This document shows positions 2,230 to 59,540 of a stretch of DNA of 64,000 bases, piece after piece. Below the pieces are notes generated by a model that was given only the letters and a program-made list of their open reading frames with translations, was not told the origin of the DNA and made no database searches. A program made the translations under genes and the position numbers. Origin of the DNA: Escherichia phage ECP2303; the sequence record PP261279.1. One strand, 5' to 3'. Each line of letters begins with the position of its first letter. Position 1 is the first letter of the stretch.

Positions 2230-5200
2230 TTACTTCAATTTCTCTTGCAATCCAGTAACAACCTCTGTCAATTTTTTAACCTGCTCCTCAAGGGCGGTTA
2301 TTTTATCGTCCTGTTCCCTGCAAACCTGGACAAGCAAGCCTGTTACAGCTGCGTAGTCAACGTTATAGAACCTTTCCTCAGTCATTAAAGGAATGCCGTC
2401 TTGAGTAGGACCTTCTATTTCCTTCCTTTTCACGAAAGATCCTACTGCCTCTGGCAATGCTTCCATAACCTCTTGAGCAATCACGCCTGCATAAGGCATA
2501 CCATTCTCTTTCAAGGTGTAGGTATAGCCTTTCATCTTTCTAATTGCTTCCAGAGCGTTAGGTATGACCTCTATGTTATCCTTCAGGTCCCTATCGGAAC
2601 TTTGACTAACAGTAGTACATTCTACCGTGCCGTTGACAGCAAAATATCTTGATTTAGCCTCATCTGCCTTAGCACCACAGTGGAATACCCAGCTGGCGAC
2701 TGTTGAGTTATCACTTATCTGAAACTCCAGCACATTCTTCCTATCTGCGCCATTACCCCAATAGTACAACCTACCTGTATTAGAAGGCATGTTGGAAGTG
2801 TTGGTAACATCCGCACCACCACCTGTGTGTATTGTGAACTCCGGTTCAAGATTGGATCCTTGAGTTTTTAAAGTGATACCTTTACCACCAAGCTGCTGCC
2901 AATGGCCCCATGTGAAAACACCACCTATCGTTGTTCCATAACGCAGGAATTTTTCTCCAAGATATGTCGTATATTCCTGTACGCAACTCTCTGGAACGTT
3001 GGCATAGTTTCTGTAGACAACGAGAGTACCTGCCTGGGAGCATGGGTAGTTTTTATCAAGTGCGGCCTGAGCATTAGCCTCCTGATGATAAAAACCCTCT
3101 CTATCCCCTTTGTAGTCGTTAAGGTCATTAGTCCCCAGCCCTTGACCACGGTGCTGAATAACTTTGTTCCATGCCCTATGGTTACCACCCTCGATAGATC
3201 TGGTGTATAGCTGATCAAGGCGACCAGCCATTTGGAAGGCATAGTTTCCAGAAAACGCCACAGACAGCCCACCAACAACCATCGAACCTTCAGGTCCGTT
3301 GACATTGCCTGCCATTATTTTAGAAGGGTTGTTAGGACCAAACTGGTTGTTCCAGTCTGCACCAGTATGGCATACAAAACCACCTGGAGCTGAGAAAGTA
3401 CCATCCTTGTTGAAGTTGTAGAATCTATGAGCTGTGCCTACAACATCGCGAACAATAACTTGACCAGCTTCCGGAGTAGATCTGAACTCTGCCTGGCCTT
3501 TGAGACCAGCACCATTACCGCATTTAGAGGTAAACGTACCGTTAGTCAGATCCTCTGTCCCATCAGATGCACACTGGAATCCTGCATTAGAGAATAACGC
3601 CTTTCTAGGACTGCCGTAGCACAAATAGTCAAGACCGTCTGCCCATAGCTCGACTTTTGGCATATTCATTTTGCTCATCACAGCATAGCGTTCAGCAGTG
3701 CCTATATAGTGCCACTGTGTGCCGCCGCCAGTGTAGAACCCTGAAGTACCTTTAAAATCAACAATAGGTCTGGTATTGGTGTTGTTATCTCCAAGAATGG
3801 CAAGATTCAAATCTGCTGACTGAAGAGGTGCAACGAACTTAACCCCATCCTGATTGTCTGTTACAGAGCCAACCTGGTAATCTTGCTCTCTGGTAAACAC
3901 TTCGACAACATTTCTACTTGCGTATATGCTGACAGGGAAAGCACGAGCCTCTACATAGAAAGCAACATACTCTTGTTTACCCCTTGTTGGAGCAACCATC
4001 CCAAGAAGTGCTTTTTCATTCTGGTAGAAATTTACTACCCCGTAGAAAGCGTCCCCTCTGTCTGTCCAACCACCAGTTCTATAGTGACACTGTAAGGTAG
4101 CACAGTTCATAGGGTCACCGCCGGATGACGATCTGGTAACTATGGTAATATCAGTGCCAGTTGCTGGAGCATAGTACGGATCTGTTCTAACGATAATTGG
4201 GTAGTATTTCCCATCTTCCATCCCTGCGGTTCTTGGCAGTGTTAAGAAGTCTTTTACACCTGCTGCTATAGGAACTTTGAACAGATTCTGAGCATCTGCT
4301 AAAGTTGTGGCTCCAGTACCACCTGCGGCGTGAGGTAAAGGTTCCCACTTGGCCTTCCGGTTGTTATAAACACCCCATTCCAAACTGCCGTTACCGGATT
4401 CGTCCATCCCGCCATCCCAGATAACCATCTTGGCGGCTTTCTTGGACCCCCAAAAGCCTCTTTCTGCTCCTGAACTACGGATCCACTCCCCAAGTCCCCA
4501 GTTTGTCAGCTGACCAGTAAGATCCCCAACCTGCATATATTTAGGACAGTCTAATACACCGTCCTCGCGGAAACCTAAATATCTATGAGTTTCAGATCCT
4601 TTTGCACCTTTGTGGAGGTGGATTGTCAACCAAGCCTTATTGTCGTTTCTTACCTCAGAATAGATCCTATAACCATGCTCAAGAATACCATCAGTATTAT
4701 ATTTATCTCCATGGAGAATACCTGAGGCCGATTTAACATCTCCAGAGTATTGAGCTAAGTAAAGGTGCCCGAAGGCTGGCGAGTTGTTTTTACCAAGGCC
4801 GATATGAGATCTGAAAGTATCATCGTTACGAGGTCTGACCATCGGCTGCCATGCAGTCCACTGGTTTGTGTTGGCCTGATAGGTTCTCAAATACCAAACA
4901 TCTACGTTAGAAAATGGATAGTATTCCTGACGACAACCTGTACCGCCGTTAGCATTGTTCTGCCAAACAATCAAGTGACCAGCACCAGAACCTGCAGGGT
5001 AACCATTTGCCTCAGTTGCATAAGCAGTCATCGGCTGGTAGTATACGCCATCCTGATTACCAGTCAAGTTATTGATATTGAAATTTGGCTCAAGGGCTGC
5101 ACGTTGCTTATAGAAAGCACCGATATTGATACGGACTCCAGCGGCATCTCTAGCCCCTGTGCCGCCTTGCTCTATAGCAAGAGGTTGCCACGAAGCTGTT

Positions 5201-6030
5201 TGTTGGTTCCACATACCCCAACGGCCTGTTGCATCAAGCTGCAAGTACCCTGCCGTATTTAAATCATCTCCAGCACGGATAACTGTTCTTGTTGGGTTGT
5301 TTGCCTCTAGGCGTTTAAATTCATCACGAAGTGCTATTCTTTTCGTTGTTGCTACACCGTTGGTTACTGCAATGGTGTACATGGCTCCGGTGGTAGCGCC
5401 ACGGAAAATACCATCAACAGTTGTAGTATCACGACGAGATACCACACCGTTCAGAAATTTTTCACCAGCTGCTACAGAAGGGTAGTTGGTAGTTCTTCCC
5501 TCTTCAATAACTGCAGGGCCAACAAAGTTATCGAGGTGAATAACATCGCCTACAGTGTGCACTGTACCAAAATCTACACGCTGTGCAAGTGCTTTGGCAT
5601 CGTTAGCTGTCTGAACAGTAACATCCATTACATCCTGGACAGACTGCCCTTCGGCTGTCATGATCATAGATGCGCCAATGGTAGATTCCAGCTCCTCCCT
5701 TAATGACGGATCTGTATATACCATCCATGCAGCGTCAGTAATCCCACCATCGGAGTACGGTGAAGACAGTGCAGGAACAGTGTGTGGAAATTCGCCTTTC
5801 CAACGTAGGTAGAGGTCTTCCTCTTCGAAGTAGGCAAAATCCATTGGGCCGTTTAACTTACCACCTTCCTTAAAGGAGATTACATGAGAAACAGTCCCAT
5901 CAACATGGACAACATCGCCAATTTTTACACGACGGGTCAGGTCTGGTTGTTGAACAACCAGGTAATCATCCTCTGTCACTGCGGTAGTGGCAGGAAGAGA
6001 TTCAATTCTGACAACTTTAATATCAGCCAT
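2230..6030 (-). CDS. long tail fiber / tailspike with C-terminal intramolecular chaperone (peptidase S74-type) domain
   Basis: 1266 aa; C-terminus SDRDLKDNIEVI...GYTYT...coiled coil matches the autoproteolytic chaperone domain of endosialidase/L-shaped fibers; N-terminal ~110 aa homologous to the N-terminus of the 222-aa protein at 8665-9333. Confidence 0.8.
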   Translation of the reverse strand: MADIKVVRIESLPATTAVTEDDYLVVQQPDLTRRVKIGDVVHVDGTVSHVISFKEGGKLNGPMDFAYFEEEDLYLRWKGEFPHTVPALSSPYSDGGITDAAWMVYTDPSLREELESTIGASMIMTAEGQSVQDVMDVTVQTANDAKALAQRVDFGTVHTVGDVIHLDNFVGPAVIEEGRTTNYPSVAAGEKFLNGVVSRRDTTTVDGIFRGATTGAMYTIAVTNGVATTKRIALRDEFKRLEANNPTRTVIRAGDDLNTAGYLQLDATGRWGMWNQQTASWQPLAIEQGGTGARDAAGVRINIGAFYKQRAALEPNFNINNLTGNQDGVYYQPMTAYATEANGYPAGSGAGHLIVWQNNANGGTGCRQEYYPFSNVDVWYLRTYQANTNQWTAWQPMVRPRNDDTFRSHIGLGKNNSPAFGHLYLAQYSGDVKSASGILHGDKYNTDGILEHGYRIYSEVRNDNKAWLTIHLHKGAKGSETHRYLGFREDGVLDCPKYMQVGDLTGQLTNWGLGEWIRSSGAERGFWGSKKAAKMVIWDGGMDESGNGSLEWGVYNNRKAKWEPLPHAAGGTGATTLADAQNLFKVPIAAGVKDFLTLPRTAGMEDGKYYPIIVRTDPYYAPATGTDITIVTRSSSGGDPMNCATLQCHYRTGGWTDRGDAFYGVVNFYQNEKALLGMVAPTRGKQEYVAFYVEARAFPVSIYASRNVVEVFTREQDYQVGSVTDNQDGVKFVAPLQSADLNLAILGDNNTNTRPIVDFKGTSGFYTGGGTQWHYIGTAERYAVMSKMNMPKVELWADGLDYLCYGSPRKALFSNAGFQCASDGTEDLTNGTFTSKCGNGAGLKGQAEFRSTPEAGQVIVRDVVGTAHRFYNFNKDGTFSAPGGFVCHTGADWNNQFGPNNPSKIMAGNVNGPEGSMVVGGLSVAFSGNYAFQMAGRLDQLYTRSIEGGNHRAWNKVIQHRGQGLGTNDLNDYKGDREGFYHQEANAQAALDKNYPCSQAGTLVVYRNYANVPESCVQEYTTYLGEKFLRYGTTIGGVFTWGHWQQLGGKGITLKTQGSNLEPEFTIHTGGGADVTNTSNMPSNTGRLYYWGNGADRKNVLEFQISDNSTVASWVFHCGAKADEAKSRYFAVNGTVECTTVSQSSDRDLKDNIEVIPNALEAIRKMKGYTYTLKENGMPYAGVIAQEVMEALPEAVGSFVKRKEIEGPTQDGIPLMTEERFYNVDYAAVTGLLVQVCREQDDKITALEEQVKKLTEVVTGLQEKLK

Positions 6031-13130: not shown

Positions 13131-15470
13131 TTACCAAAGATCTGTTGACATAAAGTTAATATCCTTGTTGTTCTCCCACTCAAGTTTTGCATCAAGTATT
13201 TTGCTAAACTCCCCCTCATCTATTGAAATCGTGATTTTACCATCACTAATCTCTAAAGGGAGCATTTCCATAGTTCTTAATTGAGAAGCAAAACCAGGGC
13301 CACCGGGCAACGGAAGAGTCCCTCCCGGTAAGGTGTCCAAAGGATCAACAAACCCGTTACCTCCAGATATGATATCTTTGCGAATCATATCGCTGATAGT
13401 ATCCAGTTGCTGATTTCTCTCACTCAGTGGGTTGAAACGGTCATTAAATAACTCCCCGGCGCTTAATATTGTACCGATAATACCAAGCTTACCAAGCAGG
13501 CCAACTTTACCACCAGGTGTCTTGAGGCCACCTCCCCCTTTTCCTGCCGCACCACCACCAGATCCTTCTGTGGTAGCTGCACCTGCACCTGCTGCTCCAG
13601 CTGCACCTCTTATAGAACTAAGGAATTTGAAGGTTTTTACAAGCATAGATGCCATGACAAAACCTTTTGTCAGGGCGTTCACTACCAGCATAATGGCAGC
13701 AGCAAACCCTGCCCATTTAGCATAGCTAAAGGTGTCATTAAGCTCTTCAGAATATTCCTTCGTCTTAGCTGTTATGAGTCCCCATTTAATCCCCCATTCA
13801 AGGAAAAACATGCGGATCTTGACTATGGTATTGTTTAGTTCACCAACTACCCAGTTGAGACCTCTCACAAAACCACTAACAAAATCACCAGAGGCATCCC
13901 ACACAAATTGCAAAGTCTCACCAGTGCGAATCAGTGTATAATAGAACTCTGTTAGTTCATCAGCCCAACGGGTGAATAGTTTCTGACGAGACAGTTCAAT
14001 GAAGGTTTTCAGTCTGTTTTCTGCCAGTACGTTAGACTTCTGCATTCTTTCATAACCAGCTGCAGATGCCTCGTTCATGTACTTAGCCACATACTTCATG
14101 ATCTTGGCTGTCTTAACCTCACCTTTCTTCATCATGTCCATGAACTGATCCATGGATAGTTCAGAAAGACCAAAAGCCTCTTTGGTGGCTTTGATAAAAG
14201 GTTCGTATGCACCAGGCAATGCTTCAGCAAGTTGTTGCTTCAGTTCTTCGGACATTACCTGTCCTTTACCGAGCATTTGCTGGATTGCCATGATGCCACG
14301 CTGGTATTTTACCTCATCTGCACCGTAAGCAGCAGCATACTGTGAGTATGCAGAGAATAGCTCATGCACCTCTTGATTTGTCATCTGGTTTTTGGCGTTT
14401 ACCGCCATCTGGGCGTAACCTTGAAGACCAGATTTGAGATCAAAACCAAGACGCATAGCCTCTTGCTGGACAAACGCAACCTCACTGTTGGCTTTGTTTG
14501 GATCTCCAGTAACAGCAGTAAGAGCAGCACTTGCCCCCTCCATCATGTGACCAGATCTGTTCACAGCAGTAAATCCAGAGAAAGCCGTATACGCAGCTGT
14601 TGCATTAATAACAGACCTACGTAAGTCTCTCATGGCATCACCAAGTGTAAGCGTTTGGCTGGTGGCGCTTTTAAATCCAGACTGCAGAGCTGACAGGTGG
14701 GCGTTAAAGGTTGACTTTTTCATCTCTCCGCGAGCAAACCTGGACTCTAACTCTGAGTATCCTGGCAAGCTTCCACGGAATCCGGCCCCATACTTGGCAG
14801 AAAGTCTTATCGCAGAGTTGTAGAGGTGGGTTCTCCTTGCCTCACGATCCGACATAAGCTTATTATCCATACCAGCTTTACTGTCTCTTCTTAGCTGCCT
14901 ATGATAACGATTCATAGCGGCTGTCTGAGCTTTCACAAGGTTAGGGTCGGAAGCCACACCACCCATATTAGGGTTACCTGGGATATACTTGAAAGATTTG
15001 GCATTAGCCAAAACTCTTGCCTTAGGTGCCTTATAACCGCCGTAAGACACTGGTGCAGATTTGGTAGCCTTTTTGGCCTCTTTAGCTTGCTGCTGGTAGA
15101 ACTTACGCATCCTAGCCATTTCTGGATTTTTAGCGGTAAGATTACCCACAGCTTGTTTACGTCTCGCGTTCTCCCTACGTTCTATTGCAGCCCTTACTGC
15201 AGCCTCTTTCTTGGCCTGTGCTACGCTCTCCCTGTGCAGTTTAGCATTTGCCTGATATTGCTGTCTGGCAACCCGCTGCATTGTTTGCTGGGTTTTAACA
15301 GCCACTGCCTGCCATCTACTCATTGGGTTGGCTGAGTTAAAATCCTCGCCCAGTTTCCTGAACTCCCTCCCAATACTGCGAATTTTCTCTACAGCTTTTT
15401 TGTAGGAGGAGTTCTCTATCTCAAAGCCAATCTTGTTGACTGTTGTGGCAACTATTTTGTTTGTAGCCAT
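13131..15470 (-). CDS. tail tape measure protein
   Basis: 779 aa; long helical, coiled-coil-rich sequence with a Gly-rich segment (GAAGAGAATTEGSGGGAAGKGGGG); located after the chaperone pair. Confidence 0.75.
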   Translation of the reverse strand: MATNKIVATTVNKIGFEIENSSYKKAVEKIRSIGREFRKLGEDFNSANPMSRWQAVAVKTQQTMQRVARQQYQANAKLHRESVAQAKKEAAVRAAIERRENARRKQAVGNLTAKNPEMARMRKFYQQQAKEAKKATKSAPVSYGGYKAPKARVLANAKSFKYIPGNPNMGGVASDPNLVKAQTAAMNRYHRQLRRDSKAGMDNKLMSDREARRTHLYNSAIRLSAKYGAGFRGSLPGYSELESRFARGEMKKSTFNAHLSALQSGFKSATSQTLTLGDAMRDLRRSVINATAAYTAFSGFTAVNRSGHMMEGASAALTAVTGDPNKANSEVAFVQQEAMRLGFDLKSGLQGYAQMAVNAKNQMTNQEVHELFSAYSQYAAAYGADEVKYQRGIMAIQQMLGKGQVMSEELKQQLAEALPGAYEPFIKATKEAFGLSELSMDQFMDMMKKGEVKTAKIMKYVAKYMNEASAAGYERMQKSNVLAENRLKTFIELSRQKLFTRWADELTEFYYTLIRTGETLQFVWDASGDFVSGFVRGLNWVVGELNNTIVKIRMFFLEWGIKWGLITAKTKEYSEELNDTFSYAKWAGFAAAIMLVVNALTKGFVMASMLVKTFKFLSSIRGAAGAAGAGAATTEGSGGGAAGKGGGGLKTPGGKVGLLGKLGIIGTILSAGELFNDRFNPLSERNQQLDTISDMIRKDIISGGNGFVDPLDTLPGGTLPLPGGPGFASQLRTMEMLPLEISDGKITISIDEGEFSKILDAKLEWENNKDINFMSTDLW

Positions 15471-15524
15471 GCTTTCCTCATAATAAAAAGGGCCAGATCC
15501 CAGAAAAGGAATCCGGCCCTTAGA

Positions 15525-15773
15525 TTATCCTCTCCTGCGCTTAGCTTTCGCAGCAGCTGCGGCAGCCTTCTGCTCCCGCTCCATTTCCCTGTTTTGGACG
15601 GTATCTAGGAATTCTTCGATATCAAGATACTCACAGAGCTTCAGGAAATACGCCATATCTGCAAGATTTAGCGATTCAAAATTTTCCCCTTTGAAATTCT
15701 TGAGCACCCTGCACCAAAGAAAGTCGAACCAGTTAAGTGAACTGTTCTTAGCTGCCCACTCACTGGCCCTCAC
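15525..15773 (-). CDS. tail assembly chaperone C-terminal extension (reached by -1 frameshift)
   Basis: 82-aa frame lies in the -1 frame relative to the upstream chaperone ORF and stays open back across the slippery site; classic G/GT-type arrangement between tube and tape measure genes. Confidence 0.5.
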   Translation of the reverse strand: MRASEWAAKNSSLNWFDFLWCRVLKNFKGENFESLNLADMAYFLKLCEYLDIEEFLDTVQNREMEREQKAAAAAAKAKRRRG

Positions 15774-15784
15774 AACAACCTTGC

Positions 15785-16904: not shown

Positions 16905-18281
16905 TTATTCAGTCATTGCAACAGCATTGGTGGATTTAGAACCAACTTTGTCCAGAAGGACGTTGATCCGGATACGAACGAAGTGCAGGGCGTTGTTATA
17001 CACCAGTTCTACTTTCACACCTTCCAGAACACGAGCAGCCAACTGATTGGTTGGGATTTCTGCACGTTTAGGAACTGTGATGATCGGGTCGTAGAATACA
17101 TTATTGTCTTCGTCAAAACCTGTCAGGATCGCACCATTTTTAATGCCAGTATTGATCGGGTTGTTCATCAGAACAGACTTGATAACCGGAAGATCATCAT
17201 CAGACATCTTCATGCTTAAGCCCATATTGGAGCGGCGATGCATGTACCCAAACATGGACTCTTCAGATCTGAACTTGATCCAGTGTGCAAAACGGATAGC
17301 GTCTGCATACTGACCTGAAGCACACTTACCTTCCCAGAAAGCGCCAACACCGTTAATCATTCTATAGAAGTTAACGTGGTTTTCCCAAATCGCCATACGC
17401 TGAGTTAAAGTCAGGGATGGTGCAATAACGCCCGGCATCTGTTTTAAATGCAAGCTGTCGCCGTAAGACGGATCGTTGGATGCCATAGCGCCTACGATAC
17501 CACCCTCTGGAAAATCTTTATCCGCACGAGGATCGTACATGCCGACACTATCATATTGTGCAGCCATCAGTTTGGTGGCGATGTTATTTTCTTTGCCAGT
17601 CACATCTTCTGCAGTAGAATAGACATGGAGCTTGTAGTTAGCCTGAGCCCACTTAGCACATGCTTCAATGTCGGTGTGGTCTTCATGGCACAGGAAGTAC
17701 CAATTATCACGCTCAGCATTGATCTTATCAACTACTGTAGAAGGTTTTTCAGAATTGGCGATATTTTTGATTGTATAGTTACCAGTATGATAACCAACAG
17801 TGCAGTCACCAGTGATGGTAATAACACCTTCAGAAGCCTCTACAGTGATATCGTTCAAGTTATCATCTGCTTCGATTTTAGTCTTCATTGATTCTGCAAT
17901 CTGAGTTGCACCTGTTCCACCAGAGATAGGTACTATCAGAGAAGTATTGTAGCCACCTTTTGCAATGGTCATTACGACATCGGTATCAGCTGCGGCAGCA
18001 ATACCTTTAAAATCTACAGTGGTTTTTTCTTTAGCCTGTCTGCCGATCATAACGTATTGTGGAGGGAATACACCGCCGAAAGCTTTTGCTGCAAACTCAT
18101 ACGCTGCAGAGCCTTGTGCGAAACCGTCTTCCACCATCTGGTCCAGCTCCGCATACACGCGAGCTCGCTCAGTAAAGTTGTTGTGGATAGCGATGAACAG
18201 CGGGGTTTCGAAACCTACAGTGTCAATAGGCTGGGTTCCGAGGTTAACTGTAACATCTACCACTTTATCTAAATATGGCAT
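16905..18281 (-). CDS. tail sheath protein (putative) or major tail protein
   Basis: 458 aa, first gene of the tail block; size and order relative to tube, chaperone and tape measure fit a contractile-tail sheath. Confidence 0.5.
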   Translation of the reverse strand: MPYLDKVVDVTVNLGTQPIDTVGFETPLFIAIHNNFTERARVYAELDQMVEDGFAQGSAAYEFAAKAFGGVFPPQYVMIGRQAKEKTTVDFKGIAAAADTDVVMTIAKGGYNTSLIVPISGGTGATQIAESMKTKIEADDNLNDITVEASEGVITITGDCTVGYHTGNYTIKNIANSEKPSTVVDKINAERDNWYFLCHEDHTDIEACAKWAQANYKLHVYSTAEDVTGKENNIATKLMAAQYDSVGMYDPRADKDFPEGGIVGAMASNDPSYGDSLHLKQMPGVIAPSLTLTQRMAIWENHVNFYRMINGVGAFWEGKCASGQYADAIRFAHWIKFRSEESMFGYMHRRSNMGLSMKMSDDDLPVIKSVLMNNPINTGIKNGAILTGFDEDNNVFYDPIITVPKRAEIPTNQLAARVLEGVKVELVYNNALHFVRIRINVLLDKVGSKSTNAVAMTE

Positions 18282-26063: not shown

Positions 26064-27611
26064 TTAGATAAAACGCTTGAACATAGAAGGTGATGAGATT
26101 GATGGAATCACACAAGGCAGCGCTACCTCCTCTTTCTCTAGGAAATTAATCGCAGAAGCTACACAGTCGGCCCAGTCGTCTTTTCTGTTAAATGTTGATC
26201 TTTCCCCGTTGAACTTTTCAAGTTCAGTCAGAAATGCTTCCAGAGTGTCAGGATGGAAACTGGATTTTACAATCCTCACCATTCCTTGTTGGGCAAGATT
26301 GGCAAAAGGTGAGAACCTTGTCAGTTTAGATTTGTTGGAAGGCATTGGATCTTCTTCAACCCTGAACCCTTCGGCGAGCAAGGATCTGGATGAGGTTAAG
26401 AACTCACTCTTACCTGCCTGGCCGGGGTCCACAGAAAATACGATTATGCAATCATCTCCATCAAACTGTGCCTGTTTCCTGATGATCACATCTCGTTCCC
26501 CAGCCTTTTTACAGAACTTGCCTTCCAGACCTGTGGAATACCTACCGTCATCCACGTTCTCAGGACAATAATCTCCGGACAGGTAATAAAAGCCGTCGCT
26601 ATCTTTACTTACCTTAACACTGGCGGTAAAGTCAGGAAATTTATTACCGGAAGTTCTCTCGGTCCCTGCCTTATCCCATGCCCTGCAAGATACTGATCCA
26701 AGAGGTACTCTATCGGCATCCCGAAGGAAAGATCTTTGGAAATAGTTTGCACCCTCAGGTTTGGCAAACCAGTTGCCATGAAGAAGCTGGGCTTTTTCAA
26801 GCTCTGGCAGACCTTCAAGGAAAGCAAGGTATTCTGGGTTGTCTCTCAAGCAGACAGGATTATCGAAAATTGTTGCGCCTATAAACGAGAATGACAACGG
26901 TCTTGGCTTGATCTCCACACCCAGTCCGTTAACCGTGGTGTATTTCTCTATTAACTCTTCTTTAGAGTCTCCCCAAATAAATTCACCGTCGCGTCGGATA
27001 AAATATCTTTTCTTACCACATTTCTCCGGATCTGGATACCCTTCATCGTCCAACCACCACCTAACCAGTTTGGCAAGCATGTGTTCTGAGTCGGGGTTAC
27101 AGCTGATAACCATTCTTGATGGATACTTTGACTGAGATCGCAGACGAGACATCAAATAGTCTATCTGCTCCCATTCGAATTGCGTGCCTTCATCGAAGCA
27201 AACCATGGTGTACTCAAGGCCTTGATGGTTAAGCTTATCTTGGACATACTCCATGTGGCAGTATTTTACAACGGCCCCCTTTTTGCTCCTATCCCACTTG
27301 CCAGTGCTCGGATCAAACCGTGGAAAAATAAACTTATGATCCTTCTCTCTGAACTTTGGTTTAATGTTTTCAGGCAGATCACTGTAAATAGCTACTGCTT
27401 TAGGCCATAGCCCACCCTCACCTTCCAACTGGGGAGTTGTTCTTCGGAACATAACCACAGAGCTGTGCGGGTCATCAATAATTTTAAGCGGCATTAGCTG
27501 CAAGAGGAACGACTTGCCAGACCCAGCTGCACCTCCGATCACCAAAATATCTGCATCGTTCTCTAGGATCATCTTCTGCTTTTCAGAACACGGTCCGTAA
27601 ATCTTAGACAT
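26064..27611 (-). CDS. terminase large subunit
   Basis: Walker A GGAAGSGKS, Walker B-like VCFDEG, C-terminal nuclease-domain acidic motifs (SVDPGQ); 515 aa. Confidence 0.85.
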   Translation of the reverse strand: MSKIYGPCSEKQKMILENDADILVIGGAAGSGKSFLLQLMPLKIIDDPHSSVVMFRRTTPQLEGEGGLWPKAVAIYSDLPENIKPKFREKDHKFIFPRFDPSTGKWDRSKKGAVVKYCHMEYVQDKLNHQGLEYTMVCFDEGTQFEWEQIDYLMSRLRSQSKYPSRMVISCNPDSEHMLAKLVRWWLDDEGYPDPEKCGKKRYFIRRDGEFIWGDSKEELIEKYTTVNGLGVEIKPRPLSFSFIGATIFDNPVCLRDNPEYLAFLEGLPELEKAQLLHGNWFAKPEGANYFQRSFLRDADRVPLGSVSCRAWDKAGTERTSGNKFPDFTASVKVSKDSDGFYYLSGDYCPENVDDGRYSTGLEGKFCKKAGERDVIIRKQAQFDGDDCIIVFSVDPGQAGKSEFLTSSRSLLAEGFRVEEDPMPSNKSKLTRFSPFANLAQQGMVRIVKSSFHPDTLEAFLTELEKFNGERSTFNRKDDWADCVASAINFLEKEEVALPCVIPSISSPSMFKRFI

Positions 27612-27898: not shown

Positions 27899-28293
27899 CG
27901 AACCTCCTGATTGATACTCTCATTATAAATATCTATTAGCTGATCAGGAAGTGTTGACTTCTTACCTTCAGGAGATTGGAGGTAGATAATCTGCTTTTCT
28001 TTACCTGCCTTCTCAGCCATATTTAATTTATCCTGTAGATCAGAAAGAGATTTTTCAAGGTTTTTAACCTCCTCTGCGTGGCCCATTTTAATTTTGTCGG
28101 CCTGCTTTTGTTGTTGGTCAAGGATCCGTTCCCACTTTAACTCTGTTGCTGACACACCTTCTTGATAAGCATCATTGAGCTTAGAGTTAAACCAATACAC
28201 GGCCCCAAGATAAGCCATGCCTATAGCCGCTGCAAAAACTAAACCTTTTATGATCCCTCTGTGTTTACTCATCAATGTTAAAACTGAAATCAT
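27895..28293 (-). CDS. i-spanin (Rz-like)
   Basis: 132 aa; N-terminal transmembrane helix then charged coiled coil; immediately followed by the lipoprotein gene. Confidence 0.55.
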   Translation of the reverse strand: MISVLTLMSKHRGIIKGLVFAAAIGMAYLGAVYWFNSKLNDAYQEGVSATELKWERILDQQQKQADKIKMGHAEEVKNLEKSLSDLQDKLNMAEKAGKEKQIIYLQSPEGKKSTLPDQLIDIYNESINQEVR

Positions 28294-28310
28294 TTTTAAG
28301 GCTCCAGAAA

Positions 28311-28345
28311 CGAAAAAACCCCGCAGCTATACAGCTAACGGGGCG
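28311..28345 (-). terminator. Rho-independent terminator at the early/late boundary
   Basis: Minus-strand GC-rich hairpin (CCCCG...AGCU-guau-AGCU...CGGGG) followed by UUUUUU. Confidence 0.55.
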
Positions 28346-28399
28346 GGTTAAAATTGAGTAACCTAAATAGATCGAAACTAACTAAAAGGAGACTAATAC

Positions 28400-28669
28400 T
28401 TATCGAGGCACTCGGTGGATGATTCTGACAGTAACCGCATTCTCATTCATCAAGTAAGCATCCACATCTCTGTAAATATAAAACTTCTGCTCGCTATCAA
28501 CAACACAAGCTACTGCCCCTTCAGAGTTGTCTTCAAAGAAGACCACAACTGCATCGCAGCTTAGTTCATGATACGACTCTCGAAGATTTACAGCAAGAGG
28601 GTTGAAATCGTCACGAAGATCTAAAGTATGGGTTGGATTTACACGTTCTACAATTTTAAGTGTATACAT
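28400..28669 (-). CDS. hypothetical protein
   Basis: 89-aa ORF downstream of the tRNA cluster with AAGGAA RBS. Confidence 0.4.
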   Translation of the reverse strand: MYTLKIVERVNPTHTLDLRDDFNPLAVNLRESYHELSCDAVVVFFEDNSEGAVACVVDSEQKFYIYRDVDAYLMNENAVTVRIIHRVPR

Positions 28670-28715
28670 TTTAAAGGTTCCTTTTGTGTGTATATATTTA
28701 AAGTATAACTAAAGG

Positions 28716-28792
28716 TGGTCTCCACGGAGTGATTCGAACACTCGACCTCCTGATCCCAAATCAGGCGCTCTACCAAGCTGAGCTACGCGGAG
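28716..28792 (-). tRNA. tRNA-Pro (anticodon UGG)
   Basis: Hand-folded cloverleaf: acceptor with C1-G72, D-arm GCTCAGCTTGGTAGAGC, anticodon loop UUUGGGA, T-arm GAGTG-TTCGAAT-CACTC, CCA encoded. Confidence 0.7.
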
Positions 28793-28803
28793 TATTTATT
28801 ATT

Positions 28804-28878
28804 TGGTGGCCCTGGGTGGAATTGAACCACCGTCTGGCGATTATGAGTCGCTTGCTTGAACCTTCCAGCTACAGGGCC
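28804..28878 (-). tRNA. tRNA-Met (anticodon CAU; initiator-like loop CUCAUAA)
   Basis: Acceptor GGCCCTG/CAGGGCC, anticodon loop CUCAUAA, T-arm GGTGG-TTCAATT-CCACC, CCA encoded; could alternatively be a lysidine-modified Ile tRNA. Confidence 0.6.
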
Positions 28879-28879
28879 A

Positions 28880-28955
28880 TGGTGCTGATGGCAGGACTTG
28901 AACCTGCAACCTATTGATTACAAATCAATTGCACTGACAATTGTGCTACATCAGC
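28880..28955 (-). tRNA. tRNA-Thr (anticodon UGU)
   Basis: Acceptor GCTGATG/CATCAGC, D-stem GCAC/GTGC, anticodon stem ATTGA/TCAAT with loop UUUGUAA, T-arm GCAGG-TTCAAGT-CCTGC, CCA encoded; 1-nt spacer from tRNA-Met. Confidence 0.7.
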
Positions 28956-28959
28956 AAAA

Positions 28960-29058
28960 GGTGCTAGGTGATGGAATCGAACCACCTATGTATTCAACGA
29001 CTACCTCGTCTATTTTCAGGATTAAAAATCCTCGCCCTTGCCAAAGGGCTTACCTAGC
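28960..29058 (-). tRNA. atypical tRNA-like gene (99 nt; Lys-type UUUUUAA anticodon loop; ~30-nt insertion before the T-arm)
   Basis: Perfect 7-bp acceptor (GCTAGGT/ACCTAGC), D-arm GCCC-TTTGGCAA-GGGC, 4-bp anticodon stem AGGA/TCCT with loop UUUUUAA, extra hairpin ACGA-GGTAG-TCGT, T-arm GGTGG-TTCGATT-CCATC; too long for a canonical type I tRNA and not folding as a standard type II. Confidence 0.35.
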
Positions 29059-29156
29059 GCAATATGTTGACCATGTGGCTAGTCGGCGATGACGACTGTA
29101 ACATTTGATAATCCGGTTCTGCTTCCGGCTTTCGCTTAATTACAAGGTCAACAATG

Positions 29157-29247
29157 TGGCGGAGAGTAATGGAATCGAACCATCATCGAGTTATCCTCAA
29201 CGGGACGGTTTTCAAGACCGCTTGAGCACCATTGCTCCCTACCCTCC
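29157..29247 (-). tRNA. tRNA-Ser (anticodon UGA), type II
   Basis: Anticodon arm GCGGT-CUUGAAA-ACCGT nearly identical to E. coli tRNA-Ser(UGA); long variable arm; T-arm GATGG-TTCGATT-CCATT; CCA encoded; 91 nt. Confidence 0.7.
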
Positions 29248-29361
29248 TTTATAAATTACACTGATAATGACACTGATTTTCGAGCAGTTAGTGACTAGTA
29301 TAAACGACGATAAATATCAATGTCATTATCTGTATGATTTATGCATTTAAAAATATAAATT

Positions 29362-29448
29362 TGGTGGGGAGTGGTGGAGTCGAACCACCCGAGTCGCAAT
29401 GACAATAGATTTACAGTCTACACCGCTACCTCTACGGGATAACTCCCC
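29362..29448 (-). tRNA. tRNA-Tyr (anticodon GUA), type II
   Basis: Anticodon arm GTAGA-CUGUAAA-TCTAT and variable region TGTCATTGCGACTCG resemble E. coli tRNA-Tyr; T-arm GGTGG-TTCGACT-CCACC; CCA encoded; 87 nt. Confidence 0.65.
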
Positions 29449-29452
29449 AATT

Positions 29453-29527
29453 TGGCACCCCGTACTGGACTCGAACCAGTGTCAACGGCTTAGAAGGCCG
29501 CTGCTTTATCCACTAAGCTAACAGGGC
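29453..29527 (-). tRNA. tRNA-Arg (anticodon UCU)
   Basis: Acceptor GCCCTGT/ACGGGGT (two G-U pairs), D-stem GCTT/AAGC, anticodon stem GCGGC/GCCGT with loop CUUCUAA, T-arm ACTGG-TTCGAGT-CCAGT, CCA encoded. Confidence 0.65.
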
Positions 29528-29585
29528 ACTGGGTGGCTTTCTTTTACACCTGAGCCGCCAGAAAAGGTGGGAGACCATGTTTATA

Positions 29586-31404: not shown

Positions 31405-31908
31405 AGCAGACTCCTCTTCAAGTTATAGAAAAACTCACTGTATCGCTTTGTAACGAGCTTTTCTATCAAACTGGTGCGATTGCCTTACTTGGTATAGTTT
31501 ATATAGCTGTGGAGCGATTTAGGGGCCTTCTTGTCAGTTTCCACACATAAACTTTATCCGAACTCGCGCGGGAGGCTCTCAACCGACTCCTTCCGGCGCT
31601 GGCAAGCTTTCGTCGGTGGTACACATTAGTGCTCGGCCTTTGGCCTGCGCTATCGCTTCGCTCCCACACATGTTAACAGTCCTGCATGTATGCACTTCTG
31701 TTATTGTGTGCACTATGGAGGCCCGGCATCTCGCCCCTCGTAGGCGAGTGCCAATGAAGGGCCGACACTACCCATAATAAGTAATAAATTTAAAACATGG
31801 TACTTAGGATCTAGTATATTCTACATAAGTTAAGTATATGTACTTTAGTACCATAAGTACTAGATCTTTTATTTTTATTATTTAGTTATTTTAGTTATAT
31901 TCTTTATG

Positions 31909-31989
31909 TGTCCGTATCACGGACAGTTAGTGTCCGTATTACGGGCAGATGTGTCCGCGTGACGGACAGTAGTGTCCGTATCACGGACA
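31909..31989. repeat. array of four 17-bp palindromic iterons (TGTCCGT-ATC-ACGGACA) phased at 21-22 bp
   Basis: Copies at 31909-31925, 31931-31947 (variant), 31952-31968 (variant centre), 31973-31989; each has 7-bp inverted arms; read directly from sequence. Confidence 0.85.
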
Positions 31990-32064
31990 GTTACTAACCT
32001 CTGTTCCAGAGTGAACATAAAACATACAAATCCTTATAGTACAGATGTTTAAGTTTTTACTGGT

Positions 32065-44231: not shown

Positions 44232-44239
44232 CAAGTAGA

Positions 44240-44266
44240 GGGAGGCTTGCGCCTCCCTTTTCCTTT
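44240..44266 (+). terminator. Rho-independent terminator
   Basis: GGGAGGC-uugc-GCCUCCC followed by TTTTCCTTTT. Confidence 0.7.
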
Positions 44267-44276
44267 TGGAGGCACT

Positions 44277-45083
44277 TTGAGCAAGAAAGAGTCCAACGAC
44301 AAATATTACACAGACCCCGAGTATGCAGAATATCTTGTTGGTAAAGTAAAAGGTAAGTATGGGAATTGTGCATACGTTGAGCCTTCTGCTGGAAAGGGTT
44401 CTTTTTCAAAACTATTTTCAGAGATACTGTCGTATGATTTGGTACCAGATCCTGAATTTGAAGGCCCAACCCCGTGTATTAAGGCAAACTTCTTAGAGGT
44501 GTATCCCAAGGCTGATGTATTCATAGGTAATCCTCCATTCGGCAAAAATTCGTCTTTAGCTTGCAAGTTCTTTAACCACTGTGCATCATTGCTAGAGCCT
44601 GGTGGAGCTATAGCCTTCATCTTGCCACGGACTTTTGAAAAAATATTTTTTGCAAACAAACTGGACATGTCGATGCACCTTATTTATAGCGAAAGGTGCC
44701 CCAAGAACTCGTTTTTACTTAACGGCAAACCTTATGACGTGCCATGTGTTTTCCAAATTTGGGAGAAAAAGGTGTGCAGTAGGGATCCTGTAGAGATCGG
44801 GGAGAATAAGTTATTTTCTTTTAGCACTCCGGATGATTACGACTTCTGTATAAGACGTGTTGGGTATAATGCTGGGAAAGTATTGGGAGAGGATGACCCA
44901 AAATCTGAAGAATCAACATATTTCATAAAATCTTTAGTTGATGGTGTTGACAGAGTGTTTGCTGAGTGCTATTCTTCTTTTCAAGAAGAAGCAGGTAAGA
45001 CTGCTGGAATGAAGAGTATAGGCAAGAAAGAACTACAATACATTTTGGAGACCAGGTATGATCAAAAGCATAGACTTGACTAA
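44277..45083 (+). CDS. DNA N6-adenine methyltransferase
   Basis: Motif I VEPSAGKGSF and motif IV NPPFG; start moved to TTG 44277 (GGAGG RBS) because the track start 44247 lies inside the terminator hairpin. Confidence 0.75.
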   Translation: MSKKESNDKYYTDPEYAEYLVGKVKGKYGNCAYVEPSAGKGSFSKLFSEILSYDLVPDPEFEGPTPCIKANFLEVYPKADVFIGNPPFGKNSSLACKFFNHCASLLEPGGAIAFILPRTFEKIFFANKLDMSMHLIYSERCPKNSFLLNGKPYDVPCVFQIWEKKVCSRDPVEIGENKLFSFSTPDDYDFCIRRVGYNAGKVLGEDDPKSEESTYFIKSLVDGVDRVFAECYSSFQEEAGKTAGMKSIGKKELQYILETRYDQKHRLD

Positions 45084-45516
45084 AGAGCTTTCCGATGCAA
45101 AAGCTTTTGGTGAGACAGCCGTGCAAAGGGGACAGGCTATGGGGCTGGCACTACCTTTTGTCTTAAAAGAGCATTTTACAGATTTTCAGCTTATCCGGGG
45201 TGAAAAGGGTATGCTTATTCTGGAACATAAGCTGAGTAAGAAACGTTATAAAGTTGTTTTTAATTCTAAAGCTCCAACAAAACTTGGATTCAGAACTTAC
45301 AATCTCAACCCTTCTTATACTAAGGGTGTTGGAAGAGTGGAGCAGCAGCATTTCAGTGCTAGAGCTTCTTTAGCCCCTTTGATGATAAATTTCTCAGGTG
45401 TGGCTTTAGGATACCTAGATAAGAAAAGAGTTCTTCATGTTCGTTTTACAGACTTTGTAACGCTTTTAGCTAACAACGAAGTAGATGAAAAGGGACGTGT
45501 AAAAACAAACTTCTAA
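45058..45516 (+). CDS. hypothetical protein
   Basis: 152-aa ORF. Confidence 0.35.
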   Translation: MIKSIDLTKELSDAKAFGETAVQRGQAMGLALPFVLKEHFTDFQLIRGEKGMLILEHKLSKKRYKVVFNSKAPTKLGFRTYNLNPSYTKGVGRVEQQHFSARASLAPLMINFSGVALGYLDKKRVLHVRFTDFVTLLANNEVDEKGRVKTNF

Positions 45517-58674: not shown

Positions 58675-58686
58675 ACATTAATTCTA

Positions 58687-58708
58687 AAGCCCTCTTCGGA
58701 GGGCTTTT
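58687..58708 (+). terminator. Rho-independent terminator
   Basis: AAGCCCUC-uucg-GAGGGCUU followed by TTAT. Confidence 0.65.
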
Positions 58709-58725
58709 ATGATCTGGAGATTTGC

Positions 58726-59259
58726 ATGACTTGTGCTCGAAAACCTGATGAACAACGTAACGCCTACGATGAGTATGTGACACCGGAGTGGTGTGCAGAA
58801 GGGCTGTATGACCTTATTCCGTTCCCAGAAGACTGGACCTACTTAGAGCCTTGCAGGAATAGTGCCTCAGGTGTGTTCTACTCCCGTATGCCGTTAGGAT
58901 CTGCATGGGGAGAAATCCAAGAAGGTGTTGACTATCTGAATACAGAATACAACCATGTTGACTGTATTATCACCAACCCACCATACAGTTTGGCTCGTGA
59001 GTTTGTAGACAAGGCGTTGAAAGATGCTGACGTAGTTATTATGCTTTTGCGTCTTAATTTTCTGGAAAGCAAAGCCAGATTTGAATGGTGGCTTGATAAT
59101 GCACCTACCACTGTGATCACAATATCTAAGCGTCCATCTTTTCAATCAAATGGCAGAACTGACGGGCAAGCATATGCATATTTTGTGTGGGATAAGAAAA
59201 ACCGTTTAGGCTTGCCGCCGTTTATGTGGTTGGCACCCCCAGAGGTAGACCTGAAATGA
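58726..59259 (+). CDS. phage Dam-type DNA N6-adenine methyltransferase (small)
   Basis: CIITNPPYSLA (NPPY catalytic motif) in a 177-aa protein. Confidence 0.7.
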   Translation: MTCARKPDEQRNAYDEYVTPEWCAEGLYDLIPFPEDWTYLEPCRNSASGVFYSRMPLGSAWGEIQEGVDYLNTEYNHVDCIITNPPYSLAREFVDKALKDADVVIMLLRLNFLESKARFEWWLDNAPTTVITISKRPSFQSNGRTDGQAYAYFVWDKKNRLGLPPFMWLAPPEVDLK

Positions 59260-59540
59260 AAATGAGTGCTAAGGACAAATTACACCAGCTAGCGCTAAAA
59301 CGCCCTGTAACGCTCCCTGACGAGCTTAACTCCATTTATGATGCGATTGTAGGGGAGATACAAAATAAAGCGTTAGCAGGCTTTCTGGGGTGCGGATTTT
59401 CGATAAATCTACCCTCGCATCTCTCAGATTACTTCCCGCACATTGTTGGAGATTTAAGGGCAGGAGGTCTGCAGGTAGATGTTGTTGGCATCTCCCCAGA
59501 GAAAAATAATACGGTTGCCTACTTGACAGTAACCTGGTAG
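59256..59540 (+). CDS. hypothetical protein
   Basis: Start at ATG overlapping the upstream stop (ATGA); 94 aa. Confidence 0.35.
   Translation: MKMSAKDKLHQLALKRPVTLPDELNSIYDAIVGEIQNKALAGFLGCGFSINLPSHLSDYFPHIVGDLRAGGLQVDVVGISPEKNNTVAYLTVTW

Follow-up and report, generated by a model that had tools for sequence, protein, structure and literature searches.

Two predicted, remotely related TaqI-like adenine methyltransferases of a Vequintavirus as candidate writers of GATC and GTAC methylation

Mutants of phage Bas51 that escape a retron carry the substitutions D69G, D79G or T83P in what was described as 'the N6 adenine methyltransferase', and native nanopore sequencing of this phage revealed a GATC N6-methyladenine (m6A) motif that is gone in the T83P phage; in addition, the Bas51 methyltransferase is toxic on expression, and GATC methylation of the retron's reverse-transcribed DNA (RT-DNA) sets off abortive infection (PMC12548924). 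The same data contain m6A calls at a second motif, GTAC, which are assigned to no enzyme in PMC12548924. A characterised GTAC m6A enzyme, M.HpyAXII, belongs to the TaqI-like gamma class and has Asn 87 as its catalytic residue (PMC2588503). Here we analyse a 64,000-nucleotide stretch of DNA from Escherichia phage ECP2303 (PP261279.1; hereafter the window), which matches Escherichia phage ECP2309 (PP464953.1, 64461-128460) over its full length with 2 mismatches (99.997% identity), and which contains two predicted N6-adenine DNA methyltransferase genes, encoding proteins of 268 amino acids (aa; gene 1) and 177 aa (gene 2). Both gene regions were placed by megablast in Vequintavirus (rV5/FV3-like coliphages). 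Taken as a whole, our explanation, which we hold to be probable, is that these are two distantly related TaqI-like enzymes that have no restriction partner and would methylate the phage's own DNA, gene 2 at GATC and gene 1 at GTAC.

The link between gene 2 and GATC comes from Bas51 (phage WalterGehring, MZ501111). Among the four methyltransferase-like proteins of this phage, only bas51_0176 has D69, D79 and T83. This protein is 98.9% identical to the gene 2 product across all 177 residues, from which it differs by two substitutions in the C-terminal region (G162D and V174A in Bas51), and its gene occupies the same position, after a ClpP-like protease gene. Gene 2 keeps all three residues that are mutated in the escapees. 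In an alignment of 47 gene 2 homologues, T83-N84-P85-P86 were found to be invariant and D69 nearly so; T83, the residue just before the NPPY motif, is thus both invariant and changed in a published loss-of-function mutant. To relate the published calls to the genome, we counted 703 GATC sites (1406 adenines) and 258 GTAC sites (516 adenines) in Bas51. The m6A calls number 1405 at GATC, 509 at GTAC and 576 elsewhere in the wild type, and 35, 511 and 349, respectively, in T83P (PMC12548924 S4 Table). Set against the numbers of sites, these near-complete counts indicate that both motifs are essentially fully methylated in Bas51 virions. The original prediction turned on whether virion DNA carries m6A at any motif, and virions of this near-identical phage carry it at GATC and GTAC, each at ~100%. 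Since the T83P mutation reduces the methylated GATC adenines from 1405 to 35 of 1406, GATC methylation depends on the gene 2 orthologue, with the dam+ host contributing merely ~2.5%. By analogy with this 98.9%-identical orthologue, in which the activity has been shown, gene 2 would be the GATC m6A enzyme of the phage. The calls outside GATC and GTAC also fell in T83P, from 576 to 349, such that ~227 of them depend on the 177-aa enzyme; relaxed specificity, in keeping with the toxicity described, or spill-over of base calls close to GATC could be responsible. Non-specific adenine methylation by this enzyme was considered and rejected: the mutant data are GATC-focused, and at most ~227 extra non-GATC calls are lost.

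GTAC methylation, being unchanged in T83P (511 of the 516 adenines, as compared with 509 in the wild type), is independent of gene 2. Since host Dam reached only 35 of the 1406 GATC adenines, it is also implausible that the host is the source of ~99% methylation at GTAC. Moreover, K-12 and B strains are not known to have a GTAC methylase. A mark that is independent of gene 2 and too complete for the host leaves two phage candidates: gene 1, whose Bas51 orthologue bas51_0200 is 95.2% identical, and bas51_0070, a Type III Mod-like protein encoded outside the window, which is the only adenine methyltransferase of the genome besides genes 1 and 2. Because M.HpyAXII is a gamma-class enzyme like gene 1, and because a Type III Mod fits the pattern poorly, we assign GTAC to gene 1, which we infer to be the likely GTAC m6A enzyme. 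Several observations weigh against this assignment. Gene 1 carries an Asn in motif III (N71) where most of its 48 aligned homologues carry Asp; the PADLOC/REBASE-derived family that it matches comes with no stated specificity; and in the cellular loci of gene 1 relatives described below, the observed/expected ratio (O/E) for GTAC differs just weakly between loci with a nuclease partner (0.72) and those without (0.83; z ~-1.7).

It is unlikely, in our estimation, that GTAC m6A is instead made by bas51_0070, in which case gene 1 would have another specificity, possibly among the 349 'other' calls, or poor activity as tested. The Mod-like enzyme is found in both Bas51 and ECP2309 with its DPPF and FGGSGTT motifs intact and, as a further point against gene 1, might in principle act on both strands of a palindrome; likewise, the 349 calls in T83P at neither GATC nor GTAC mean that a third activity may exist and that the assignments could be swapped. 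However, bas51_0070 has the hallmarks of a Type III Mod, namely the beta-class motif order with DPPF, a recognition domain and FGGSGTT, together with a full-length match to PDLC03636 (E 1.5e-205) and a match to PF01555 (4e-42); its nearest solved relatives in the PDB are the Mod 6k0w (1.4e-28) and EcoP15I Mod (2.1e-24). The recognition sites of Type III Mods are asymmetric, 5-6 bp long and methylated on one strand, which makes these enzymes a poor fit to a symmetric 4-bp palindrome such as GTAC, which is methylated on both strands at ~99%. In addition, the ~349 residual sites would be nearer to the number for a one-strand 5-bp motif in 140 kb (~275) than to that for a second 4-bp palindrome. 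The Type III Mod-like enzyme may account for these 'other' m6A calls of T83P. No Res partner is annotated near its gene.

The original prediction of two adenine methyltransferases in one phage thus holds for the window, but the total for the phage is higher, comprising three amino-methyltransferases and one C5-like gene, with the Mod-like and C5-like genes lying outside the window. The latter encodes a 254-aa protein that is annotated as a 'Dcm-like C5 cytosine methyltransferase' in Bas51 and as 'hypothetical' in ECP2309. FDGSGG, PPC and ENP motifs can be seen in it by eye, it seems too short for a normal recognition domain, and it had no match in Pfam, NCBIfam or PADLOC.

In the account that we favour, with gene 1 acting at GTAC, each of the two enzymes would modify a different 4-bp palindrome in the DNA of the phage as it replicates. 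Through gene 2, virtually no GATC in packaged DNA would be left unmethylated, a level that host Dam could not reach on a fast-replicating genome; as a side-effect, the enzyme would methylate GATC in the RT-DNA of the retron, so that the defence is triggered. Gene 1, which comes from a Type II restriction-modification (R-M) methyltransferase family, would write GTm6AC, a mark that persists when gene 2 is inactive. The benefit may lie in protection from methylation-sensitive GATC cutters (MboI/DpnII-type, possibly MutH) and from GTAC cutters (RsaI/PabI/HpyAXII-type). The earlier suggestion of protection against more than one restriction specificity is therefore sustained in that two specificities exist, GATC and GTAC, while protection itself is put forward here as a plausible role. 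Two published results argue against such a role: the D69G, D79G and T83P mutants plaque like wild type on laboratory hosts without the retron (PMC12548924), and the Vequintavirinae were exceptionally susceptible to the R-M systems tested in the BASEL study. The latter result fits methylation of a narrow set of motifs and not a broad anti-restriction function. Of the enzymes named in the BASEL panel, EcoRI, EcoRV, EcoKI and EcoP1I are not known to target GATC or GTAC. A literature search for Vequintavirus together with RsaI returned nothing.

Site frequencies differ between the two motifs. GATC occurs in the window about as often as expected (343 observed, 340 expected; O/E 1.01), whereas GTAC is depleted (110 observed, 202 expected; O/E 0.54, z -6.5). 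The same depletion of GTAC is seen across the whole genomes of ECP2309 (261 observed, 435.7 expected; O/E 0.60) and Bas51 (258 observed, 440.7 expected; O/E 0.59), as compared with an O/E of 0.90 in 50 kb of E. coli K-12 (139 observed, 154.7 expected). CTAG, by comparison, is depleted in both phage (O/E 0.54-0.57) and host (0.19 in the 50-kb K-12 sample). That GTAC is both avoided and methylated suggests a real selective pressure, most simply GTAC-directed restriction; at this motif, the phage would appear to combine site avoidance with methylation.

On a different view of the same sites, the main role of one or both methylations would be epigenetic signalling, such as the control of replication, transcription or packaging from a hub at 31.8-32.0 kb, and not anti-restriction. 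We regard this as quite improbable. The hub includes an AT-rich intergenic region of 70 bp with GTAC sites at 31800, 31840, 31848 and 31857 and GATC sites at 31808 and 31863, which lie partly inside an inverted repeat (GATCTAGTA / TACTAGATC). Four iteron-like copies of a 21-22-bp unit that contains a palindrome (GTGTCCGTATCACGGACAGTTA) come next, in tandem (31908-31993). The GTAC sites form the densest GTAC cluster of the window (4 sites in 58 bp; P ~0.02 against uniform placement, before correction for two motifs and several window sizes), and Bas51 has conserved the four GTAC and both GATC sites despite the genome-wide depletion of GTAC. The stretch 31800-31993 could be an origin or operator array. 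Against a signalling role, the significance of the GTAC cluster is modest, GATC is unclustered throughout the window (P 0.92), no methylation-reading protein was identified, and the three loss-of-function mutants of the GATC enzyme, as noted above, form plaques normally. The original prediction had pointed to GATC sites in a hub at 31.4-32.1 kb; these are present, but there are just 2 in 700 bp, fewer than the window average of 5.4/kb would give. A regulatory or replication role for one of the two enzymes had been raised as an option; an essential role of this kind for the GATC enzyme is unlikely on this evidence and that of the mutants. The related idea that GTAC methylation by gene 1 may also mark this conserved origin- or regulatory-type hub (31.80-31.99 kb), as a switch that controls replication, transcription or packaging epigenetically, seems to us similarly doubtful. 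An Rfam match to rli43 in the hub (22.5 bits, as against a gathering score of 100) was rejected as chance.

Turning to the proteins themselves, gene 1 appears from its sequence to encode a DNA methyltransferase that descends from Type II R-M systems and, in the phage, stands without a restriction partner. Its motifs X (YYTDP, aa 10-14), I and IV are intact. Across the 48 homologues, E35, P36, G39, D54 and the whole of G84-N85-P86-P87-F88-G89 are invariant, and G41 nearly so. The protein carries an additional conserved C-terminal domain of ~100 aa (~aa 170-268), and its linear order, with motifs X, I and IV followed by this domain, is that of the gamma class. The structure model is confident (predicted local distance difference test, pLDDT, 93), and its fold similarity to gamma-class enzymes reaches past the Rossmann core into the recognition domain. 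In database searches, gene 1 was found to be a member of phrog_5172 (E 1.9e-125), a family labelled 'unknown function' that has >800 homologues and no Pfam model, and to match the PADLOC model MTase_II PDLC03255 almost end to end (E 6e-33; residues 8-253 on profile positions 2-249 of 269). No Pfam family scored above threshold, including Eco57I (PF07669; 17.6 bits, cut-off 25.3 bits) and N6_Mtase (PF02384), and there was no NCBIfam match. PF26055, which is given for some homologues in precomputed data, could be neither reproduced nor named with Pfam; a BFVD fold search yielded no match with a named specificity, and single-sequence PDB searches with the proteins of both genes gave results near noise.

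We then looked at relatives of gene 1 in one genome per species, which identified 284, many of them in Sphingomonadales and Rhodobacterales. In the phage, gene 1 is flanked by genes for a DnaQ-like exonuclease and a hypothetical protein, with no adjacent endonuclease. Among 80 cellular loci, by contrast, 19 have a same-strand open reading frame (ORF) of ~210-230 aa directly downstream of the gene 1 relative, the products of which form a family that matches the PADLOC model REase_II PDLC03460 (best E 5e-15) and had no match in Pfam or the PDB, PabI included. This divergent family has invariant positions at H7, G8, E12, K16, D35 and K42, together with a QRRxQCS motif. Other recurrent neighbours of gene 1 relatives are a serine recombinase, a MobA/MobL relaxase, Xre and AlpA regulators and an integrase. 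The partner family is probably, as judged by sequence, the cognate restriction enzyme of gene 1 relatives in bacterial mobile elements. As the partner lacks a PDB or Pfam match and its PADLOC label is merely 'Type II REase' (restriction endonuclease), a GTAC specificity is not readable from the nuclease. Papers on metagenome methylomes gave no link to the gene 1 family, and nothing was found in the literature on Sphingomonas and GTAC methylation.

These data also make it highly improbable that gene 1 is an RNA (rRNA/tRNA) N6-adenine methyltransferase of the METTL5/Erm/KsgA kind acting on host or phage RNA, as could be read from weak profile matches to Ta1320 and METTL5, from Pfam RrnaAD being touched by 5 of the 48 homologues, from NPPF being found in RNA m6A enzymes too and, as a last point against a DNA enzyme, from the labels 'RNA methylase' (JGI, one GenBank record) or 'predicted RNA methylase' on some homologues: RNA enzymes align along just the ~150-residue catalytic core, as compared with 227-249 residues including the C-terminal domain for DNA enzymes, the protein of the window falls short of RrnaAD, the Type II R-M methyltransferase model is matched over its full length, and homologues of Type II restriction enzymes follow within mobile elements in the 19 cellular loci, such that those labels are unlikely to be right.

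Genes 1 and 2 had been taken to be unrelated. Comparison of the two family profiles with hhalign contradicts this, giving a match of 97.8% probability (E 9e-13) over 146 columns; both proteins match phrog_799, and both families share the motif order (D)xYxTP, EPxxGxG, NPP(F/Y). On this evidence, genes 1 and 2 can be classed as remote homologues of one TaqI-like (gamma-order) lineage. For gene 2, the match to phrog_799 has an E of 5.5e-67. The protein is predicted to consist of the catalytic core alone, without a separate recognition domain, and has no Pfam or NCBIfam family above threshold (EcoRI_methylase, 20.0 vs 26.4 bits). The label 'Dam-type', which had been applied to it, does not hold as a family assignment: searches of Pfam and NCBIfam that admitted E values as high as 1 gave no match to alpha-class Dam (E. 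coli/T4, MethyltransfD12), and the models for phage T1-type Dam fell below cut-off (PF05869, 19.2 vs 28.1 bits; TIGR01712, 16.1 vs 97 bits). Motif I leads straight to NPPY with no domain between them, unlike the alpha-class order. Members of the gene 2 family divide weakly among the EcoRI_methylase and T1-type Dam models, with 14 of 47 touching PF05869 weakly.

The features of these loci are collected in Table 1. Both ORFs are as originally predicted, with EPSAGKG and NPPF in the 268-aa protein and NPPY in the 177-aa protein; given their PHROG matches, the PADLOC match and their conservation in ~120 phage records, these ORFs can be taken not to be chance. The start codon of gene 1 is TTG, not ATG. 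It had also been proposed that each gene lies behind its own terminator, and both hairpins do fold. The hairpin that separates the DnaQ-like exonuclease gene from gene 1 has a folding energy of -20.6 kcal/mol (z -2.75), while that upstream of gene 2 (-14.9 kcal/mol, z -2.1) was found by folding and missed by the terminator scan. The equivalent site in phage Murica is annotated as a terminator. A GATC site lies just 3' of the gene 2 hairpin (58711-58714). At neither locus did we find a convincing sigma-70 promoter between hairpin and gene, so that low expression by read-through is plausible; this would suit an enzyme reported to be toxic to cells. At their 3' ends, gene 1 overlaps the next ORF (45058-45516) by 26 nt (45058-45083) and gene 2 overlaps the next coding sequence (59256-59540) by 4 nt (59256-59259), which suggests translational coupling to downstream genes of unknown function.

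Table 1 Features of the two methyltransferase loci and of related loci outside the window. Positions refer to the window unless another record is named.
Feature	Position	Strand	Details
Gene 1, predicted N6-adenine DNA methyltransferase, gamma-type (TaqI-like order)	44277..45083	+	268-aa ORF
Gene 1 motif I, EPSAGKG	44379..44399	+	aa 35-41, predicted S-adenosylmethionine (SAM)-binding loop; coordinates computed
Gene 1 motif IV, NPPF	44529..44540	+	aa 85-88, predicted catalytic; coordinates computed
GGAGG ribosome-binding site of gene 1	44268..44272	+	4 nt 5' of TTG; read from sequence
Terminator-like hairpin upstream of gene 1	44237..44260	+	10-bp G+C-rich stem, 4-nt loop, T-rich tail; terminator scan
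Gene 2, predicted minimal N6-adenine DNA methyltransferase; GATC enzyme and retron trigger by analogy with Bas51	58726..59259	+	177-aa ORF
Gene 2 motif IV, NPPY	58975..58986	+	aa 84-87; coordinates computed
GGAG ribosome-binding site of gene 2	58716..58719	+	6 nt 5' of ATG; read from sequence; same place in Murica
Terminator-like hairpin upstream of gene 2	58686..58707	+	9-bp stem, UUCG loop; folding; between ClpP-like protease gene and gene 2
Type III Mod-like adenine methyltransferase	ECP2309 record 28187-29530 (L005); Bas51 14456-15781 (L003)		441-447 aa; bas51_0070 (441 aa) in Bas51
C5-like protein	ECP2309 record 26116-26880 (L005); Bas51 17042-17806 (L003)		254 aa
Probable nuclease partner family of gene 1 relatives	~4750-5450 in each locus		L016, L030, L033, L034, L039, L042, L044, L048, L051
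Probable nuclease partner family, continued	~4750-5450 in each locus		L052, L054, L058, L060, L061, L068, L076, L084

Each methyltransferase region was found at >=90% DNA identity (that is, at least 90%, by megablast) in ~120 phage records, and in most annotated records both genes are labelled 'DNA N6-adenine methyltransferase' or 'DNA methyltransferase'. About 20 of the matching records (MG065646-MG065684) are named 'Campylobacter phage' with Campylobacter jejuni as host, yet they share 94-98% identity with the genes of this E. coli Vequintavirus; the host given for them seems questionable. The genes, the way they are annotated and the activity at GATC were known before this analysis, so that, with the genes annotated so widely and the small enzyme characterised, their presence as such carries little weight. 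What is modestly new is the homology of the two window enzymes and the R-M-derived family of the 268-aa enzyme, with its uncharacterised nuclease partner family. Also new is the recognition that measured GTAC methylation lacking an assigned enzyme has two candidate writers, of which gene 1 would be the better. In this group of phages there is thus a second fully penetrant m6A motif, GTAC, the writer of which is narrowed to two genes, with the 268-aa enzyme favoured. If true, the assignment would give a specificity to the phrog_5172 family and to the partner nuclease family, would account for the methylation of GTAC by a phage in which this site is avoided, and would help in understanding how therapeutic rV5-like phages escape retrons and restriction.

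In comparison with known systems, the nearest module with solved structures is that of the gamma-class enzymes M.TaqI, M.BseCI, CamA and MmeI, to which sequence identity is only 15-20%; neither window gene reaches the Pfam threshold of Eco57I or N6_Mtase. M.TaqI, at 421 aa in all, has a much larger recognition domain than the ~100-aa C-terminal domain of gene 1 and, unlike M.TaqI-type gamma enzymes, gene 2 has no separate recognition domain. With E. coli Dam and T4 Dam, gene 2 would share its product, GATC m6A, but these belong to a different family, the alpha class, and have DPPY where gene 2 combines NPPY with the TaqI-like order. T1-type Dam is small like gene 2 (the Pfam profile has 169 positions), although its models remain below cut-off. 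For gene 1, compared at the level of class, M.HpyAXII of Helicobacter pylori is a gamma-class enzyme with its catalytic Asn at residue 87 (N85 in gene 1), methylates GTAC and blocks RsaI (PMC2588503), an activity that we infer for gene 1 as well. The two differ in length (331 aa vs 268 aa) and in their partners: that of M.HpyAXII is a PabI-type 'half-pipe' endonuclease, whereas the partner of gene 1 relatives matches a different Type II restriction endonuclease model.

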